From a virus, in IMG/VR virus record IMGVR_UViG_3300027554_000002: a stretch of DNA of 56,713 nucleotides, one strand, 5' to 3'. The notes beneath the pieces are model-generated. The model searched no databases. It was not told the origin of the DNA and saw only the letters and a program-made list of their open reading frames with translations. A program made the position numbers and the translations under genes. Positions 5,197 to 18,708 of this stretch are shown here, one piece after another. The stretch's first letter is position 1; the number at the start of each line of letters is the position of its first letter.

Positions 5197-5448
5197 ATGG
5201 CATCTACAATTACTCAAGAAGCGTTCGACAAGAAATATATAACGCCAAACGAAATTGAGCAAAGGCTTAGCGTTGCACGTTCAACTATTTTATACGCAAG
5301 AAAAAAAGGTACGTTACCTAACGCCATCTATATAACAGGCGCCAATATATACATTTGGGAGCGCGAGCTACTTGAGCCGCACTTAGTAAAATGGGCCGAG
5401 CAATTAACAGAACGCAGGCGCAAATCTGCGGAGCTTTTAAATGGTTGA
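5197..5448 (+). CDS. Small helix-turn-helix DNA-binding protein (excisionase/AlpA-like fold, 83 aa)
   Basis: ITPNEIEQRLSVARSTILYARKKGTLP is an HTH-like segment. The gene sits directly upstream of the primase gene. Confidence 0.45.
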   Translation: MASTITQEAFDKKYITPNEIEQRLSVARSTILYARKKGTLPNAIYITGANIYIWERELLEPHLVKWAEQLTERRRKSAELLNG

Positions 5449-7834
5449 TAGTTCTCGCTGGGGCAACATACCCGCAGAACTTCAAGCTTTACCTATTTGG
5501 TGCATTGCAAACGAAAACAAAGCACCTTGTCTCATAGGACAAAACGGACTGTACAACGCCAGTCCCGTTACAGGTCCATGGCACACCTTTGAAGATGCGT
5601 GTATTTATGCTGCACAACTAAACAAGGACATCGGCTTTATAGTTCCTGTAGGCTATACGGTTATAGATCTCGATGTAAAAGACTTCGACAGTCGCGACAA
5701 ATTTGGACAGGAGCTACCACTTGAACAACTAACACCTAATAATACGCTGGATGAGTTTGCCAGCATGGTTACTATCGCCAACTCTTACGCTGAGCTATCG
5801 CAAAGCGGCAAAGGTATCCACATTATTGTCAAAGCGGATATTGGTGCAGGTAAGAAATCACAATTTTTAGAAATCTATTCGCGAGATAGGTTTATGATCT
5901 CCACGGGCAACACTGTTGCCAAACTGGTCTACGTTAACGCGCTCGGCGTAGTTGTCCCATTAGTAAAGGACAGTACAGCGTTACCTATAGAGGAGCGCCA
6001 AGCGTTCGCTAGCAACATAGCGGATAACATGACCACAACTCAAGCGAAAACAATTGAGCTTGAAGAAGTGGAGCAGGTACACACAGATGAAGAAATCTGG
6101 CGCATGGGTGTCCATGCAGAGAACGCTTCTAAGTTTATAGACTTATGCGCGGGTAACTGGCAGCAACTAGGCTATCCAAGTCAGTCCGAAGCAGACAACG
6201 CGCTGCTGTCCATGTTTACCTTTTACACTAAGTCTAACGAACAAGTACGGCGCCTGTTTAGAGAAACAGAATTAGGGCAACGCGCTAAGGCAGCAGTCAA
6301 CGACGTATACCTTAATCGAACGCTGAGACATATACGTTCTCGTGAAGCGAAAGAAGCTGAAATAGCTGTCGTTATAGACACCCAGTCGTTAATGGAAAAC
6401 TCGCGAATCCGTAATGAAGCTAACAAAGCTGAACACAAAGAAACAATAAGCACCCTTCAGCAAGAATACATTCCAACAATTAACGAAGAACATAAGCCTC
6501 CTGATATAGAAGGGTTAGAGTGGCCGCCTGGCTTCACGGGTGTCCTTGCGGGCTACATATACAGTAGCAGTCCTCGTCCTGTTAAGGAGGTAGCTATAAC
6601 TGCCGCTCTAGGGCTTATAGCAGGCTTAGCAGGAAAGGGATGGCATACACCTAGCAAGTCCGGTTTAAACTTATATATCATTCTTGTTGCTCGCAGTGCT
6701 ATAGGTAAGGAAAGTATGCACAGCGGTATCAGCTCTCTACAGAAACAAACAGGCACGTCTTTGGACAATTTTATAAACTTTAATGACTTTGTCAGTGGGC
6801 CCGCGCTTGTCAAAGCTTGCGAGAAAACAAAATCGTTTGTTAACATATCCGGTGAGTGGGGTCGTAAACTTAGACGCCTCGCTTATGAAGAAGGACGAGA
6901 TGGCCCTATGCAACAACTTCGCACAGTAATGACTAATCTGTACCAAAAGTCCGGTCCGGATTCTACTGTAGGCGGAGCAACATACTCGGCTAATGAAAAA
7001 GATATTAACAGTGTTAAAGGCGGTGTCGCGTACAGCATGATTGGCGAAACTACACCAGGCACATTTTACGAGTCGTTAACGCAGAGCATGATGGAGGACG
7101 GGTTTCTTTCTCGCTTTACTGTCATTAAGTACGAAGGGGAGCGGCCTGCTGCTAACCCAAATACAAACTTACAACTAGATAAAACGTTTACAGGCTACCT
7201 GACAGGTATAAGCATGGCAGCCGCTAGACATGTCTCTCACAACACTTCGCAAATGGTTTCGTTAAGCCCTGAAGCGGTTAAAATATTTAGCGACTTTGAT
7301 TTGTATTGCGATAATGAAATCATAGCGTCAGGTATGGAGGAGATGGAGCGACAAATGTGGAATCGTGCGCACCTAAAAGCGTTGCGAGTTGCGTGTCTTT
7401 TAGCTGTAGCGGAGAACCACGGAATCCCTGTGGTTACTAAAGCGGATTCTGATTGGGCTATTTACTTAATAATGAAAGATATCAATATAATGAAAGAGCA
7501 TATTAAAGACGGGGATATAGGTATTGATGACTCCTCACGTATGCGCAAACTCATTAATCTTTTAAAAGACTATTTAACGAAACCTGTACCTAAGAGTTAT
7601 AAGATAGATGAACGTCTAGTAGCTGCTGGTATTATCCCTCGCAAGTATTTACACACTAGAACCTCTTCATTATCATCGTTTAGCAAACATAGATTAGGCG
7701 CAACTATATCGCTAGAGCAAGTAATAAAAGCGGCGGTGGTGAACGGGTATATCGTAGAGGTAGATAAGCATGCGATAATTAAGGACTACGCATTTCACGG
7801 GCAGTGTTTTAAGGCCGTAAATTTGCCCGATTAA
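5441..7834 (+). CDS. Bifunctional primase-polymerase / helicase-like replication protein (797 aa)
   Basis: N-terminal prim-pol motifs (VIDLDVKD, SQSGKGIHIIV, EIYSRDRFMISTG). A SQSEADNALL primase C-terminal-type segment. P-loop-like ARSAIGKES in the C-terminal half. Confidence 0.75.
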   Translation: MVDSSRWGNIPAELQALPIWCIANENKAPCLIGQNGLYNASPVTGPWHTFEDACIYAAQLNKDIGFIVPVGYTVIDLDVKDFDSRDKFGQELPLEQLTPNNTLDEFASMVTIANSYAELSQSGKGIHIIVKADIGAGKKSQFLEIYSRDRFMISTGNTVAKLVYVNALGVVVPLVKDSTALPIEERQAFASNIADNMTTTQAKTIELEEVEQVHTDEEIWRMGVHAENASKFIDLCAGNWQQLGYPSQSEADNALLSMFTFYTKSNEQVRRLFRETELGQRAKAAVNDVYLNRTLRHIRSREAKEAEIAVVIDTQSLMENSRIRNEANKAEHKETISTLQQEYIPTINEEHKPPDIEGLEWPPGFTGVLAGYIYSSSPRPVKEVAITAALGLIAGLAGKGWHTPSKSGLNLYIILVARSAIGKESMHSGISSLQKQTGTSLDNFINFNDFVSGPALVKACEKTKSFVNISGEWGRKLRRLAYEEGRDGPMQQLRTVMTNLYQKSGPDSTVGGATYSANEKDINSVKGGVAYSMIGETTPGTFYESLTQSMMEDGFLSRFTVIKYEGERPAANPNTNLQLDKTFTGYLTGISMAAARHVSHNTSQMVSLSPEAVKIFSDFDLYCDNEIIASGMEEMERQMWNRAHLKALRVACLLAVAENHGIPVVTKADSDWAIYLIMKDINIMKEHIKDGDIGIDDSSRMRKLINLLKDYLTKPVPKSYKIDERLVAAGIIPRKYLHTRTSSLSSFSKHRLGATISLEQVIKAAVVNGYIVEVDKHAIIKDYAFHGQCFKAVNLPD

Positions 7835-13185: not shown

Positions 13186-13793
13186 TAGATTTATACAGCA
13201 CCTTAGGCGTAGTTCGTGAAGCTAGTGCGATAGAAATTAAAAACGCTTACAAGAAACTAGCTCAGAAATACCATCCGGATAAAGACCCTAGTCCTGAAGC
13301 TACTAAAAAATTCCAAGACATTAAATTCGCATATGAAATTCTAAGCGATTCAAATCGTCGAGAAGTTTATAACGAATCAGGTATGACAGAGCAGGTACTG
13401 ACGCCTGAAGATGAAGCTAAGTTTATTGTGAACGCTTTTATTGCAAAGATAATGTCTGAAAACGAATACCAAAGCATAGACTACGCTAAGGATCTTCAGA
13501 TTAATATTAAGCGCGAAATTAAAGCAGGTAAGAAGTTTCTAAAACAGCAAGAAAAGATTCTTAGTCGCGTTCAAAAGTTATCGGGTAAGTTTAAAGGCGA
13601 TCCGTTCGTAGATCATTTGGAAGCGCAAGAACATATAATCGAAGAACGTTTAGAAGGTGTAAGCGCAAAGATAGAAGTCTTTGAATTAGCGTTAACGCTA
13701 GCAAACAGTTATGAATACTTTGGTGACATTGAAGAACTAGAAGTAAATCCTGAACGTTCATTATTAGAAATGTTGACATCTCTGCATGATTAA
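13182..13793 (+). CDS. J-domain (DnaJ-like) co-chaperone protein (203 aa)
   Basis: DLYSTLGV...IKNAYKKLAQKYHPDK with the HPD tripeptide; ATGA overlap with the upstream gene. Confidence 0.85.
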   Translation: MIDLYSTLGVVREASAIEIKNAYKKLAQKYHPDKDPSPEATKKFQDIKFAYEILSDSNRREVYNESGMTEQVLTPEDEAKFIVNAFIAKIMSENEYQSIDYAKDLQINIKREIKAGKKFLKQQEKILSRVQKLSGKFKGDPFVDHLEAQEHIIEERLEGVSAKIEVFELALTLANSYEYFGDIEELEVNPERSLLEMLTSLHD

Positions 13794-15612
13794 GCCAAGA
13801 GACTATCAAGTAGCTGCTAGGGAAAGTATATGGAAATACTTTCGAGACGGTAAAACAGGCAATCCTCTTGTGGCTATGCCTACAGGTACGGGCAAGAGTA
13901 TTGTTATAGGCGATTTCTTACAGTCTGTTTATACCCATTACCCAATGCAGAAAATAATGGTATTAACTCACGTTAAAGAGTTAATTCAGCAGAATTATGA
14001 AAAGCTCATAATGATGTGGACTAATGCACCGGCGGGAATTTATAGCGCGGGTTTAAAACGCAGAGAAGCAAACGATAGCATAACGTTTGCTGGCATAGGC
14101 TCTGTAGCTAAGCGAGCAGATGAGTTCGGCTTTGTTGATTTGTTAATTATAGATGAAGCGCATCTAGTGAGCCCTAACGAAGGGACAATGTATCAAAAGT
14201 TTATTAAAGCACTAAAGAAATTCAACCCTCATTTAAAAATTATAGGCTTTACTGCTACGACATACCGACTTAAGCAAGGCAGTCTGATCGAAGAGGACGG
14301 TTTATTCACAGATATATGTTTCGACTTAACAACACCCGAATCATTTAATTGGCTTATACAAGAGGGCTATCTTATGCCACTTGTCCCAAAGAAAACGACC
14401 TCGGAATTAGAAGTTGATGGAGTTACTAAAAGAGGTGGAGAGTTTGTTGCTAAGGATTTGCAGCTAGCAGTAGACCGGGAAGAAATAACTTTCGCAGCAC
14501 TTAAGGAAGCTATAGAGCTAGGTCACGACAGACACTCGTGGCTTGTTTTTACTACAGGTATAGAACACGCTATACACACAAACGATATGCTCATTAGCTT
14601 TGGCATAGATAGCGAAGTGGTACATTCTGGAAATAAAGACTATCCGATGCTTCCAGGCCAGCGAGATGAAACACTGCGCAAATTAAAAGCGGGCGAGATA
14701 CGTGCTGTGGTTAATAACAACGTACTCACAACAGGCTTTGATCATCCCGCAATAGATTTTATAATTATGTTGCGCCCATCTGCTTCTGCTGGCTTGTGGG
14801 TTCAAATGCTAGGACGTGGCACCAGGCCTATGTACGCGGAAGGGTTTGACTTAACTACAAGAGAGGGGCGTATACAAGCTATAGAAGCAAGCCAAAAACA
14901 AAATTGCCTGGTGGCAGACTTCGCAGGTAATACAAGACGCCTGGGTCCTATTAATGATCCAATGCTGCCAACTAAGCGAGGAAAAAAGAAAGGAGGCGAA
15001 GCTCCTGTCAAAGTTTGTGACAGTTGCGATTGCTATGTTCACGCCAGCGTTCGTATATGTGAATACTGCGGATTTGAATTTCACTTTGCAACACATCTAA
15101 ACGAAACAGCAGCAACAGACGAATTAATAAAGGCGGACTTACCTGTAGTAGAGTCGTTTAAGATTGACCACATTACATATGGCTTGCATCATAAAGCAGG
15201 CAAACCGGACAGCATGAAAGTTTCTTATTATGCTGAGTACCAGATGTTTACTGAATATGTCTGTTTAGGGCATGGCGGCTTTATGCAAAAGAAAGCAGAA
15301 AAGTGGTGGGAAGTTCGCGCTACTTATAAACGGGCTCTTGAGGGAGAGTCTTTAGATGATGACGAAGCTGTTGAAACGCCTAGCACAGTTAAGCGAGCTA
15401 TTGAATTAGCGTCCGCACGTATAGCAACGCCTACACATTTGCGTGTATGGATTAATAAGAAGTACCCGGAAATTATGGATTATTGCTTTGACGGTACGGA
15501 TTTCGGGCAGACGGACGAGATAGCAGACTCGCCTACTGCTGTCAGTATTGCTGATAACAGTGCTAATCCAGTAGTAGATGTAGCTGATTTTGTGGACGAC
15601 ATCCCATTTTAG
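13786..15612 (+). CDS. SF2 (DEAH-box) DNA helicase with a Zn-ribbon and an SSB-like acidic C-terminal tip
   Basis: Walker A MPTGTGKS, DEAH (IIDEAHLV), motif VI QMLGRGTRP, CDSCDC...CEYCG, and the C-terminus DFVDDIPF. Confidence 0.85.
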   Translation: MIKPRDYQVAARESIWKYFRDGKTGNPLVAMPTGTGKSIVIGDFLQSVYTHYPMQKIMVLTHVKELIQQNYEKLIMMWTNAPAGIYSAGLKRREANDSITFAGIGSVAKRADEFGFVDLLIIDEAHLVSPNEGTMYQKFIKALKKFNPHLKIIGFTATTYRLKQGSLIEEDGLFTDICFDLTTPESFNWLIQEGYLMPLVPKKTTSELEVDGVTKRGGEFVAKDLQLAVDREEITFAALKEAIELGHDRHSWLVFTTGIEHAIHTNDMLISFGIDSEVVHSGNKDYPMLPGQRDETLRKLKAGEIRAVVNNNVLTTGFDHPAIDFIIMLRPSASAGLWVQMLGRGTRPMYAEGFDLTTREGRIQAIEASQKQNCLVADFAGNTRRLGPINDPMLPTKRGKKKGGEAPVKVCDSCDCYVHASVRICEYCGFEFHFATHLNETAATDELIKADLPVVESFKIDHITYGLHHKAGKPDSMKVSYYAEYQMFTEYVCLGHGGFMQKKAEKWWEVRATYKRALEGESLDDDEAVETPSTVKRAIELASARIATPTHLRVWINKKYPEIMDYCFDGTDFGQTDEIADSPTAVSIADNSANPVVDVADFVDDIPF

Positions 15613-15642: not shown

Positions 15643-15671
15643 TTGACACCTTTATCCGATAACTAGATACT
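15643..15671 (+). promoter_or_regulatory. Sigma70-type promoter TTGACA-N17-GATACT
   Basis: Consensus -35 in the intergenic gap after the helicase. Confidence 0.55.
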
Positions 15672-15718
15672 GGCTACAGATGCAGCAAAGCATCAAACAA
15701 CTTACAGAGGGCTTAACA

Positions 15719-16339
15719 ATGAACAAGAAGCAAACATACGCAACTAAAGCAGCAGCAAAGAAAGGCGCAATTCGCGCAAACTCGAAAACTCATAACTTCG
15801 ACATTGCTGAAGTTACTTTCCAGAAAATGGAAAATGATCGTTGGATTTGGATCGACGAATGTGATCAATCAATTTTAGATCGTACCGGCGGAGCGTTTAT
15901 CCATTGCCCTCATTGTGGTATCCATTTAGAAAACGGACTGGTCGAGCATGATTACAGCATTACACAAGCTGAAGTTGATGCAGGTGAAGCTGATTACAGA
16001 AACGATACTCACGAATTGTCTTGCATGGCATGCAATGGAGAATTTGGTAACGAGCTTTCTGCTGCACCTTGGAGCGCTAAGAAAGTAACAGCACCAACTG
16101 GCGAAGGACTTAAGATCGAAAAGAATCGCCCAGTTAGTAACGGTATCGCACGTCCAAGTGTTAGCGGAAAGTGTCGTGCAGTTTGGGATACATGTGATGC
16201 GCTACTTGCAGAACATGGAGAATTTCCGAAGCCTAAAATGCTTAAAGAAGTTATAGCTAAGAGTCACCCGGAAGTAAGTCCAGTAACAGCCACAGTCCAA
16301 CTGTACCGCTGGAGAGCTTTCCAAAGTGTTGAAGGTTAA
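15719..16339 (+). CDS. Hypothetical Zn-ribbon protein (206 aa) ending in the shared C-terminal module (paralog A)
   Basis: AGAGGG RBS before ATG 15719; CPHCG...CMACNG; module at 16121..16324. Confidence 0.65.
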   Translation: MNKKQTYATKAAAKKGAIRANSKTHNFDIAEVTFQKMENDRWIWIDECDQSILDRTGGAFIHCPHCGIHLENGLVEHDYSITQAEVDAGEADYRNDTHELSCMACNGEFGNELSAAPWSAKKVTAPTGEGLKIEKNRPVSNGIARPSVSGKCRAVWDTCDALLAEHGEFPKPKMLKEVIAKSHPEVSPVTATVQLYRWRAFQSVEG

Positions 16340-16395
16340 TAAAAAGAAAGCGTCCGCAATAAGCGGGCGCTCCTTCCTAACTTGGAGATTTTAAA

Positions 16396-17151
16396 ATGAC
16401 ACGCCATGTATCAGTAGACTTAGATAATTTAAGGATAGCGTACCTGCATAATGACACCCGTATACTGCATGACATTTCTTGGATTAGTATGCGAACAGTA
16501 TCTTACTGTATTTTCCCGGTAAGCCATGATGATGGGAATTGCTTTGAACGCTTTACAGACTTGGAATTAAAATTAATTTATACGTCAATGACTGGACTAG
16601 AATGGCCACACATATTCAAACGCAAAGCTGTTATTCAAGTTCTTGTAGATATGTGCCTGGAAGCTCCGGAAACTAAAGCCAAGCTTTCTGAAACATTAGC
16701 GCAATCTGATTATGTAGACGTTAATGATGATAAAGATTGGACATACGTATATGGAGCTAAGCGTCCAACAATACAAACTGAGCTTTTCCCGTCCGTAACG
16801 GTAGCAGTAAACAAGGAAGCAGAAGCGAAAGCAGTTGCAGGTGAAACGCCAGCAGTCGCTAACAAGCCGAAGCTTAACTTGGAGCCCACACAGGGCGTAG
16901 AGCAGCGCGTAAGCACAGCAGCAGCTAAGCCTAAGCGAGCAGCCAGTAAAGCTCCTAAGGGCATTACAGCGCTTATACGTGCAGAAGCTCAGCAAGCATG
17001 GGAAGCAGCGGGCAAACCTGTAGAAAAAGACCAGTTAACAGAGATAAGAAAAGCGGTTCGTGATAAGTTTATTGAAGAAGGTGTTAATAAAAATACACTT
17101 AGCGTACAACTTTCTAAATGGCAGAAAACAATATTGGGCACTAGTAGCTAG
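16396..17151 (+). CDS. Hypothetical protein (251 aa) with a diverged copy of the shared module (paralog B)
   Basis: ORF track; GGAG upstream; module at 16951..17139. Confidence 0.65.
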   Translation: MTRHVSVDLDNLRIAYLHNDTRILHDISWISMRTVSYCIFPVSHDDGNCFERFTDLELKLIYTSMTGLEWPHIFKRKAVIQVLVDMCLEAPETKAKLSETLAQSDYVDVNDDKDWTYVYGAKRPTIQTELFPSVTVAVNKEAEAKAVAGETPAVANKPKLNLEPTQGVEQRVSTAAAKPKRAASKAPKGITALIRAEAQQAWEAAGKPVEKDQLTEIRKAVRDKFIEEGVNKNTLSVQLSKWQKTILGTSS

Positions 17152-17192
17152 ACAAAGCAAGGTAAATACACTTATACTTACCTTGCTCGCAG

Positions 17193-17232
17193 TAATTAAC
17201 TAATTAACTAACTAATTAACTAACTAATTTTA
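17193..17232. repeat. TAATTAAC / TAAC tandem repeat tract with stop codons in all three forward frames
   Basis: taattaac taattaac taac taattaac taac taatttta. Confidence 0.8.
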
Positions 17233-17256
17233 TTTAAACATAAAGGATAACTTATC

Positions 17257-17901
17257 ATGAGTACATTAAAAGAATTGAACGCTGCTGTAACTGCATCTAA
17301 CAAAGCAGTAACAGCTTCTGAAAAAGCTGTTGCAAAATTAGAAGGAGCAAAGACTCCGGACAAAGATGCAATCAAAGAAGCGAAAGCCGAATTGCGAACT
17401 GCTAAATCTGAAAACAAGAAAGCCGTCAATGCGGTGACCAAGTTTGAGAAAGCAGCAGAGCGCGAAGCTGCTAAGGAAGAGCGCGAAGCGGCTAAGGCTG
17501 AGAAAGCGAAAGAACGCGAAGCAGCTAAGCAAGAACGCGAAGCGGCCAAGGCTGCTAAAGCAGCAGAACGTGAAGCTAACGAAATGCCTGTTCAAAACGA
17601 TGTGCGTCATCCTAAGCCTGGTACCAAGTGTGATGAGTGCTGGGGTATCAACGAAGCGATTACAGTTAAACTAGGGCAGACTGCGCCTATTGCGCATGTT
17701 CTTGAAGCTGGCCGTAAAGCTGGCCTTGAAGACGCTACGCTCAAGACTCAATATGCTCGTTGGAGAAAATTCAACGGCATTACAGGTCGAGTTGTTGACC
17801 CTGTTAAGGAAGCCGCAGCAGAAAAAGCCGCAGAAGAAAAAGCGAAAGCGAAAGCGAAAGCTGCTAAGGATAAGGCTGCTAAACTAGCGAAAGCAGCATA
17901 A
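17257..17901 (+). CDS. Lys/Ala/Glu-rich protein (214 aa) with five EREAAK repeats, the shared module (paralog C) and a KA-rich basic tail
   Basis: ORF track; AAGGA RBS; module at 17587..17778. Confidence 0.7.
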   Translation: MSTLKELNAAVTASNKAVTASEKAVAKLEGAKTPDKDAIKEAKAELRTAKSENKKAVNAVTKFEKAAEREAAKEEREAAKAEKAKEREAAKQEREAAKAAKAAEREANEMPVQNDVRHPKPGTKCDECWGINEAITVKLGQTAPIAHVLEAGRKAGLEDATLKTQYARWRKFNGITGRVVDPVKEAAAEKAAEEKAKAKAKAAKDKAAKLAKAA

Positions 17902-17931: not shown

Positions 17932-17971
17932 GGCGGAAAGATTCCTCACAGTCTCTTTCCGCCTTTTTTTG
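17932..17971 (+). terminator. Rho-independent terminator (10-bp GC-rich stem plus T7)
   Basis: ggcggaaaga-N12-tctttccgcc followed by ttttttt. Confidence 0.8.
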
Positions 17972-18000: not shown

Positions 18001-18708
18001 ATGAAACCAAACGTTCAAGTTATCGAAAAACGAATCGCTTCTAATGGCGCCGAAATAGATATTGTAGATGTCTTTTTAACTATACAAGGGGAAGGACCTT
18101 TTACCGGTCGTCCTGCTATCTTTATTAGGCTCGCTGGATGCAACTTGCAATGTCCAGGCTGTGATACGGACTACACTAGCAATAGAGAATCTTTTGAATA
18201 CGGCAGTATTATTGATAAGGTAGTTGACTTAGATAATTTTAATGACTTTCATAATGCGCCTACTCTCGTTGTTATCACAGGAGGCGAACCTTTCAGACAG
18301 AACATTACTGCATTATGTAATAAACTTATCGAACTTACTTACGAAGTCCAAGTAGAAACAAATGGTTCTTTCGCGCCCATAGGTGCGCTAGATAAAAATG
18401 TGGTTATTGTGTGCAGTCCGAAAACTGGATCTGTAAACAAAGAAATCCAAGAACTTGCTTCTTGTTATAAATACGTCATGGCTGCTGACAGTGTAGATCC
18501 AGAAGACGGGTTACCTATACAAGCTTTACAGCATGCGGTAAAATCTAAGCTCGCACGTCCTCCCAAAGGTATGCCTGTATATTTGCAACCTATGGATGCG
18601 CAAGATACCAAAGTGAATGAGGCAAACTTAAAAGCCGTCCTCGATAGCTGCATGAAGTTTAATTACCGATTGCAAATTCAAATTCATAAAATTTTAGGAG
18701 TTGATTAA
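18001..18708 (+). CDS. queE: 7-carboxy-7-deazaguanine synthase QueE (radical SAM)
   Basis: FLTIQGEGPFTGRPAIFIRLAGCNLQCPGCDT (C-x3-C-x2-C). Confidence 0.85.
   Translation: MKPNVQVIEKRIASNGAEIDIVDVFLTIQGEGPFTGRPAIFIRLAGCNLQCPGCDTDYTSNRESFEYGSIIDKVVDLDNFNDFHNAPTLVVITGGEPFRQNITALCNKLIELTYEVQVETNGSFAPIGALDKNVVIVCSPKTGSVNKEIQELASCYKYVMAADSVDPEDGLPIQALQHAVKSKLARPPKGMPVYLQPMDAQDTKVNEANLKAVLDSCMKFNYRLQIQIHKILGVD

Follow-up and report, generated by a model that had tools for sequence, protein, structure and literature searches.

Three consecutive genes of a tailed phage, IMG/VR virus record IMGVR_UViG_3300027554_000002, end in copies of one small protein module, and the set of three recurs across related phages. 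From the sequence comparisons below, we are close to certain that the three modules are homologous and that the triad is conserved. The DNA analysed here, referred to as the window, is the whole phage genome of 56,713 nucleotides (nt; about 56.7 kb). Its plus strand carries replication and modification genes from 2.7 to 24.7 kb, and its minus strand carries the structural genes. The trio, designated A, B and C, is flanked by a superfamily 2 (SF2) helicase gene (13786–15612) and by queE (18001–18708), which lies 3′ of the trio as the opening gene of the preQ0/DpdA cassette. This matches the initial annotation of the sequence, which placed the trio between a helicase and a modification cluster. 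We found no study of genes A, B or C in the literature.

One module in three neighbouring genes

In each of A, B and C, the module spans about 65–75 amino acids (aa) at the C terminus, whereas the N-terminal parts are distinct in all three, as the initial annotation had described. The peptides that it quoted are in frame at the coordinates given; the range for B is exact, but those for A and C include six and three extra N-terminal residues, respectively. The motif that it spelled out agrees with the conserved columns of the family (N-G, P, C/A, W, G-x-P, W-R-K-F and G), the module Cys being Ala in many relatives.

The relationship between A and C is evident from pairwise comparison. BLASTP aligned them with an E value of 3e-5 (28% identity across 69 aa), and their Smith–Waterman score of 71 compares with 22.8 ± 4.3 for 2,000 shuffles, none of which scored as high (z 11). 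Nine IMG/VR orthologs per gene were used to make an A profile and a C profile, which matched at 99.4% (E 8.6e-22), and both proteins match PHROGs 11298 and 18634.

For B, the single-sequence likeness is marginal (z 2.0 against A and z 2.9 against C in Smith–Waterman shuffles), and BLASTP of B against A and against C returned nothing significant. The structural model of the B module also lacks the hairpin seen in the C model and has a longer helix 2, and the lists of Protein Data Bank (PDB) neighbours differ between the two models. Such observations would fit a convergent or chance likeness of B, leaving only A and C as paralogs. Profile comparison argues strongly against this. The B ortholog profile matched the A+C profile at 87% (E 3.8e-6) and a 174-sequence family profile at 95.4% (hhalign E 1.8e-8), with a score of 42.7 that lies well above column-shuffled B controls (9.8 ± 2.3, maximum 15.9). 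The comparison with shuffled sequences that had been proposed as a check on the three tandem paralogs was thereby made for both pairings, and the proposal held. A family hidden Markov model (HMM) built without B sequences ranked B third in a six-frame search of the window (E 1e-5) as its sole further match, the next reaching E 3.3; exactly three module copies are present in the window by this search. Middle-gene modules of other phages (loci L012, L013, L018, L034, L036, L052, L090 and L093–95) are matched by both the family HMM and a B HMM, which identifies them as intermediates linking B to A and C.

Predicted structures connect B to the others in both directions. In BFVD, the C model retrieved B orthologs from R7M (probability 0.80), Quinobequin-P09 (0.92) and SE1Kor (0.93), and the B model retrieved the A/C-family proteins A0A088F6P8 (0.97) and A0A7T7GRW9 (0.84). 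B also keeps the C-terminal position and the W, G-x-P and W-x-K register of A and C, with P-R-x-G replacing their N-G/R-P motif. With all of this weighed, we consider it very improbable that B is not a true member.

The family extends far beyond this genome. Out of 1.84 billion cluster representatives, the A+C profile picked out 2,178 at E ≤ 1e-3, of which 1,243 also passed E ≤ 1e-10; clusters were defined at 50% identity, and 2,178 is a lower bound on family size. Nearly all members come from phages. The Atlas clusters that contain the module are 84–100% viral, and a scan of 185,579 prokaryote genomes returned only five loci with the module. Three of these five resemble phage contigs with a helicase-to-dpdA block, one of them being the same contig as IMG/VR locus L028. 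Within 10 kb of the other two copies, in Brevundimonas and in a Reyranella metagenome-assembled genome (MAG), there are no que genes. In the bacterial genome of Brevundimonas diminuta 3F5N (NZ_FUIE01000049.1; L096:9536-10246), the module protein has 236 aa, and its gene has as neighbours a serine recombinase, an insertion sequence (IS) transposase and a ParB_N-N6_N4 DNA methyltransferase, with adjoining copper-resistance genes; by its neighbours, this copy lies in a mobile-element context.

Typical family members have 120–300 aa and carry the module at the C terminus, with a median of 6 residues after it, and some relatives consist of the bare module (about 91 aa). Several chains carry modules in tandem, three in P0018 and P0163 and two in P0020, P0021, P0066 and P0089, so the module folds on its own. 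Metagenomic tandem relatives have Ala in place of the module Cys, so this residue is not a metal ligand. One apparent member, P0019 (7,432 aa), proved to be a false positive: it contains 34 identical 183-aa repeats, and its score against the module profile (E 1e-41) is the sum of 34 weak matches of 4.9 bits each, which calls for caution in profile searches of this kind.

For the module, nothing rose above noise in sequence searches of Pfam, NCBIfam and the PDB, whether the query was a single protein, the module profile, any of 19 modules or any of 148 relatives. Among the 148 relatives, one contains a Pfam SAP domain (E 4.6e-4) and one DUF5633. No long fusions of the module to known enzymes were found, which is weak evidence. 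The family is thus without a Pfam model or a solved structure, and it carries a database label that appears to mislead (see below).

An ancient triad in the replication and deazaguanine block

The order helicase-(A)-B-C-queE-queC-queD-...-dpdA is found in about 60 of 78 IMG/VR loci; as summarised over the loci, the block also includes folE (queE-queC-queD-folE-dpdA). Module genes also share a block with que and dpdA genes in all 11 cultured phages inspected: R7M, CAjan, a Stenotrophomonas phage, Rhizobium phage RHEph04, Synechococcus phage Ssp-JY38, Microcystis phage Me-ZS1, Pseudomonas putida phage MiCath, Vibrio phages 1.207.B and BA3, PaMx25 and Providencia phage PSTCR7. In 10 of the 11, the module genes (three in the Stenotrophomonas phage) have the helicase on one side and the que genes on the other, in most cases immediately 5′ of queE; they are separated from the que genes by one gene (yhhQ) in PSTCR7 and by several small open reading frames (ORFs) in RHEph04. 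In Ssp-JY38, a pair of module genes follows PolA and does not precede queE. The hosts span Alteromonas, Escherichia, Stenotrophomonas, Rhizobium, Microcystis, Synechococcus, Pseudomonas, Vibrio and Providencia. The closest cultured relative of the present phage is Alteromonas phage R7M (Queuovirinae, Amoyvirus), with about 68% likeness over short stretches only, and megablast against phage records gave no near match to the trio region.

Genomes in which only B and C stand between the helicase and queE have an A-type gene (PHROG 21588) elsewhere, near the primase. We built a FastTree phylogeny of 137 modules over 72 columns, of which only the grouping is interpreted. Labelling the modules by gene position required two changes for the last gene (C-type) and three for the first (A-type), and B of the window falls in a group, supported at 97%, that is made up of 26 middle genes and 17 penultimate ones. 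Modules thus group by gene position, so the duplication predates the divergence of these phages, and A, B and C are ancient paralogs, each with an orthologous group of its own type. Four loci of related phages have an extra copy of the module on the far side of dpdA, some 8 kb downstream from the triad (L013:18549-18740, L019:17886-18092, L056:18067-18222 and L064:18144-18332); no copy beyond dpdA was found in the present window.

In a large and ecologically widespread group of siphophages, which includes the Queuovirinae and relatives on Escherichia, Pseudomonas, Vibrio, Alteromonas, Rhizobium and cyanobacteria, few unexplained gene sets are as well conserved as this family, and the set of three paralogs travels with the deazaguanine and replication block.

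Predicted fold and possible roles of the module

The C module, modelled with AlphaFold2 (AF2) from the A+C alignment at a predicted local distance difference test (pLDDT) score of 93.5, forms a β-hairpin followed by helices at residues 18–33, 39–48 and 53–66. The B module model (pLDDT 81.8) has three helices and no strands, and its helix 2 is about 7 residues longer, in agreement with a 7-residue insertion in the profile alignment. The comparison of predicted folds suggested at the outset thus found three helices in both models and the hairpin in that of C only. The module is accordingly a predicted three-helix bundle, with a β-hairpin in front of it in the A and C copies.

VIA-align ranked winged-helix (WH) domains first for the C model. 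The best match was Rpa2 WH (Z 6.2, root-mean-square deviation (rmsd) 4.0 Å, 64 residues aligned), followed by MCM WH (Z 5.9), RecX (5.5), Z-alpha (5.3), MecI (5.3) and BrxR (5.2); a wide VIA search with both models gave generic helical matches at Z 5–7. Foldseek against the PDB found nothing at E ≤ 0.001 for the C model, and its list of weak matches held mostly helix-turn-helix (HTH) proteins, including sigma region 4, Lrp/AsnC and LysR. The Atlas gave a tentative lead to a bacterial HNH_2/DUF7669 cluster (template modelling (TM) score 0.70). In the C model the hairpin is N-terminal, and no strands that could form a wing follow helix 3. The earlier suggestion of a small helical, winged-helix-like domain is supported by the modelled hairpin and three helices and by the weak winged-helix matches, but not as to canonical topology. 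Because the C-terminal wing of the canonical fold is absent, 'winged-helix-like' is a description of the predicted fold and not a claim of membership.

We give roughly even chances to the reading that the module is a basic anchor, common to the three proteins, that binds DNA and carries a different N-terminal part in each. The module would then be a winged-helix-like anchor for nucleic acid, most probably double-stranded DNA, and through it three different effector or oligomerization parts would reach phage DNA during expression of the replication genes. C might be an elongated protein with an architectural or coating role, and A and B might assist replication or transcription as accessory factors. 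In support of this, modules have a mean net charge of +3.1 and are positive in 91% of cases (+3 to +7 for the B type), conserved columns include the basic W-R-K stretch, and R/K is kept in helix 3. Features typical of DNA-binding proteins occur in the same proteins or their relatives, namely a Lys/Ala tail, a putative Cys4 ribbon, a SAP-like N terminus and a Pfam SAP domain. We also count the fusions of two or three modules per chain and the replication-block context in 11 of 11 cultured phages as pointers to DNA. Should the module bind DNA, it would define a new family of small DNA-binding domains.

Several observations weigh against an anchor on DNA. No DNA-binding family was matched by sequence in Pfam, NCBIfam or the PDB, and no conserved DNA repeats that could serve as target sites were found near the genes. 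The whole proteins A and B are not basic, with isoelectric points of 6.25 and 7.7. Structural Z scores of 5–6 fall in the background range for small helical domains, and the canonical winged-helix order H1-S1-H2-H3-S2-S3 is absent, the secondary structure of the C model being E-E-H-H-H according to DSSP. Moreover, the winged-helix neighbours Rpa2, the MCM C terminus and cullin WHB serve mostly as protein-binding modules.

The last point leads to an alternative that we regard as possible but unlikely, in which the module is a protein–protein docking domain that ties the three N-terminal parts to one common partner, for example host RNA polymerase, the clamp, the single-stranded DNA-binding protein (SSB), the neighbouring SF2 helicase or the primase-helicase. 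Docking would suit the mainly protein-binding function of the top structural neighbours, the invariant W-R-K-F-x-G-x-x-G-R stretch at the domain end and the lack of candidate DNA sites near the genes, and one anchor with several heads is an arrangement suited to recruitment to a hub. Yet the neighbours in question score at background level, the basic charge of 91% of modules and the co-occurring SAP and Lys/Ala features are of the DNA type, and the hosts range from cyanobacteria to gamma- and alphaproteobacteria. A host partner would need to be highly conserved, as the family spans this whole range.

A doubtful alternative ties the triad to 7-deazaguanine DNA modification itself, either as accessory or targeting factors of DpdA or as readers or handlers of modified DNA. 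It would account for the block shared with queE-queC-queD-folE-dpdA in every cultured phage inspected and for the recurrence of this layout in the IMG/VR loci. However, such synteny may reflect inheritance of a single replication block, A-type genes relocate to the vicinity of the primase, the Ssp-JY38 pair follows PolA, and the Brevundimonas and Reyranella copies have no que genes close by. A terminator also stands between C and queE. In published work on CAjan and 9g-type phages, DpdA and the preQ0 genes explain the modification, and no further named factor is known to be needed. The probabilities that we assign to the DNA anchor and to the modification link partly overlap, because a reader of modified DNA also binds DNA.

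Still less probable, in our estimate, is the specific version in which the triad comprises dedicated DNA-handling factors that co-evolved with 7-deazaguanine genomes. In that case the module would recognize or tolerate the modified major groove. It would then draw the functions of replication, transcription or DpdA to phage DNA that carries the modification and that may be poorly read by DNA-binding proteins of the host. A link of the triad to modification would make it the first non-enzymatic partner of phage 7-deazaguanine systems.

Gene architecture, flanking elements and likeness to known proteins

The coordinates of the three genes, their modules and the surrounding elements are collected in Table 1.

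Table 1. Features of the A/B/C region, in window coordinates.
Feature	Position	Strand	Basis
Gene A (A-type paralog)	ORF 15680..16339; likely start ATG 15719	+	ORF list; PHROG 21588, E 2.8e-17
Shared module, copy A	16112..16336	+	Family HMM E 8e-25; hhalign against C profile 99.4%
Putative zinc ribbon CxxC...CxxC, gene A	15905..16033	+	Cys76, 79, 115 and 118 (219-aa reading)
Gene B (B-type paralog)	16396..17151	+	PHROG 7864, E 1.8e-41; ortholog alignment
Shared module, copy B (diverged)	16927..17139	+	hhalign 95.4%, E 1.8e-8; HMM E 1e-5
Gene C (C-type paralog)	17257..17901	+	PHROG 11298, E 9e-36; PHROG 18634, E 5e-22
EREAAK coding repeats, gene C	17438..17577	+	Direct repeats D1 and D2, 54-nt period
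Shared module, copy C	17575..17799	+	Family HMM E 1e-25; AF2 pLDDT 93.5
Sigma-70-like promoter match upstream of gene A	15643..15671	+	TTGACA, 17 nt, GATACT; consensus match only
GC-rich hairpin between genes A and B, no T run	16350..16370	+	Read from sequence
Promoter-like site before gene C	17149-17178	+	TAGACA, 18 nt, TATACT; overlaps hairpin with 13-bp arms
Hairpin with 13-bp arms after gene B	17156..17187	+	Inverted repeat I3
TAATTAAC/TAAC repeat tract upstream of gene C	17193..17227	+	Direct repeat D6
Intrinsic terminator between gene C and queE	17932..17971	+	GC-rich 10-bp stem, 12-nt loop, T7

The product of gene A probably has 206 aa. The ATG at 15719 has a GAGGG ribosome-binding site 7 nt upstream and orthologs start at the equivalent Met (M-K-T-Y...), both of which support this start, whereas the ORF start at 15680, which gives the 219-aa reading, has no such site. 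The N-terminal part is a small basic domain that occurs with or without a zinc ribbon among A-type proteins. The ribbon proposed for gene A is present as a putative one, a CxxC pair of the form CPHC...(35 residues)...CMAC that is kept in four of nine orthologs and absent from the others; Pfam Zn_ribbon_19 matched with E 0.074, below the family cut-off. One A-type ortholog (L008:2189-2605, IMG/VR 3300008255_000309) has a SAP/HeH-like motif, read from the alignment, in place of the usual N terminus.

Gene B encodes a conserved, globular N-terminal domain of about 130 aa, a linker and the module. The N-terminal domain (16396–16800, residues 1–135) has invariant T54, E57, T66, G67, Q103, Y117, G120 and P124, and no relative of it was found in Pfam, the PDB or the Atlas, where its model is of low confidence (pLDDT 0.47). 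An Atlas lead to DUF2924 (TM 0.34) was unsupported by Pfam scans of ten orthologs. The gene-caller record of B starts 31 residues later (220 aa), but the orthologs favour the 251-aa form.

In the product of gene C, a helical N terminus leads into an ER/K repeat rod, which is followed by the module and then by a Lys/Ala tail, so that the EREAAK repeats and KA-rich tail described in the initial annotation are both present. Orthologs keep the composition of the repeats and not the DNA repeat itself. We rejected the repeats as origin iterons, as they are coding repeats whose DNA is not conserved in orthologs and the phage has its own primase-helicase. Codon usage of gene C is near the genome average and gives no support to high expression.

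The trio had been described as a unit of its own, running from a promoter to a terminator. The terminator is there, ending in a run of seven T; it was identified separately, because the general terminator scan was restricted to loops of ≤8 nt, and PaMx25 has an annotated terminator at the equivalent place after its C-type gene. The promoter is present as a consensus match, but such matches are no commoner here than in shuffles (11 observed in the region, 12.1 expected). Intergenic hairpins and a second promoter-like site before C further blur the unit; the overlapping elements at 17149–17187 could act either as the promoter of gene C or as a hairpin resembling a terminator. Elsewhere in the window (5441–7834), a 797-aa protein combines an NrS-1 polymerase-type helix-bundle domain with DUF3987 (primase-polymerase/helicase), and DUF7173, RNase H, ThyX, AAA_24 and DUF669 protein genes lie near it.

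Among known folds, the best structural neighbours of the module are winged-helix/HTH domains (Rpa2 WH, 9f27; MCM C-terminal WH, 2ma3/2m45; RecX, 3e3v; Z-alpha, 9j89; MecI, 1okr). They share a compact three-helix core, a similar size and an adjoining β-hairpin. However, the likeness amounts to Z 5–6 at an rmsd of 2.4–4.0 Å, the hairpin of the module precedes the helices where theirs follows helix 3, and there is no sequence similarity, so function does not transfer.

KfrA-type nucleoid-associated and plasmid proteins combine a DNA-binding domain with a long Ala/Glu/Lys helical rod. Gene C resembles them in its long charged helix, small basic domain and Lys/Ala tail, and an Atlas structural match to a KfrA_N cluster reached TM 0.50 over 50 residues. 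The order in gene C is reversed, with the rod first and the domain last, and the Pfam KfrA_N domain matched none of A, B or C.

In GenBank, orthologous C-type and A-type genes of CAjan, R7M and other phages are labelled 'transcriptional activator FtrA domain-containing protein'. This label appears unsupported: no AraC/FtrA or other regulator domain was found in Pfam or NCBIfam for A, B and C at E ≤ 1, and no regulator domain among 19 modules (E ≤ 10) or 148 relatives (E ≤ 0.001). The R7M paper makes no mention of a 'transcriptional activator' or the FtrA label.

The closest counterparts are hypothetical proteins of Queuovirinae and related phages. A, B and C directly match their PHROGs, 11298, 18634, 21588, 22313 and 17772 for the A/C type and 7864 for the B type, all annotated as of 'unknown function'. 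PHROGs keeps these families separate, whereas here they are joined as one domain superfamily with a conserved A/B/C set. Three separate PHROG groups can thus be treated as one domain, whose role is testable in existing E. coli phages.

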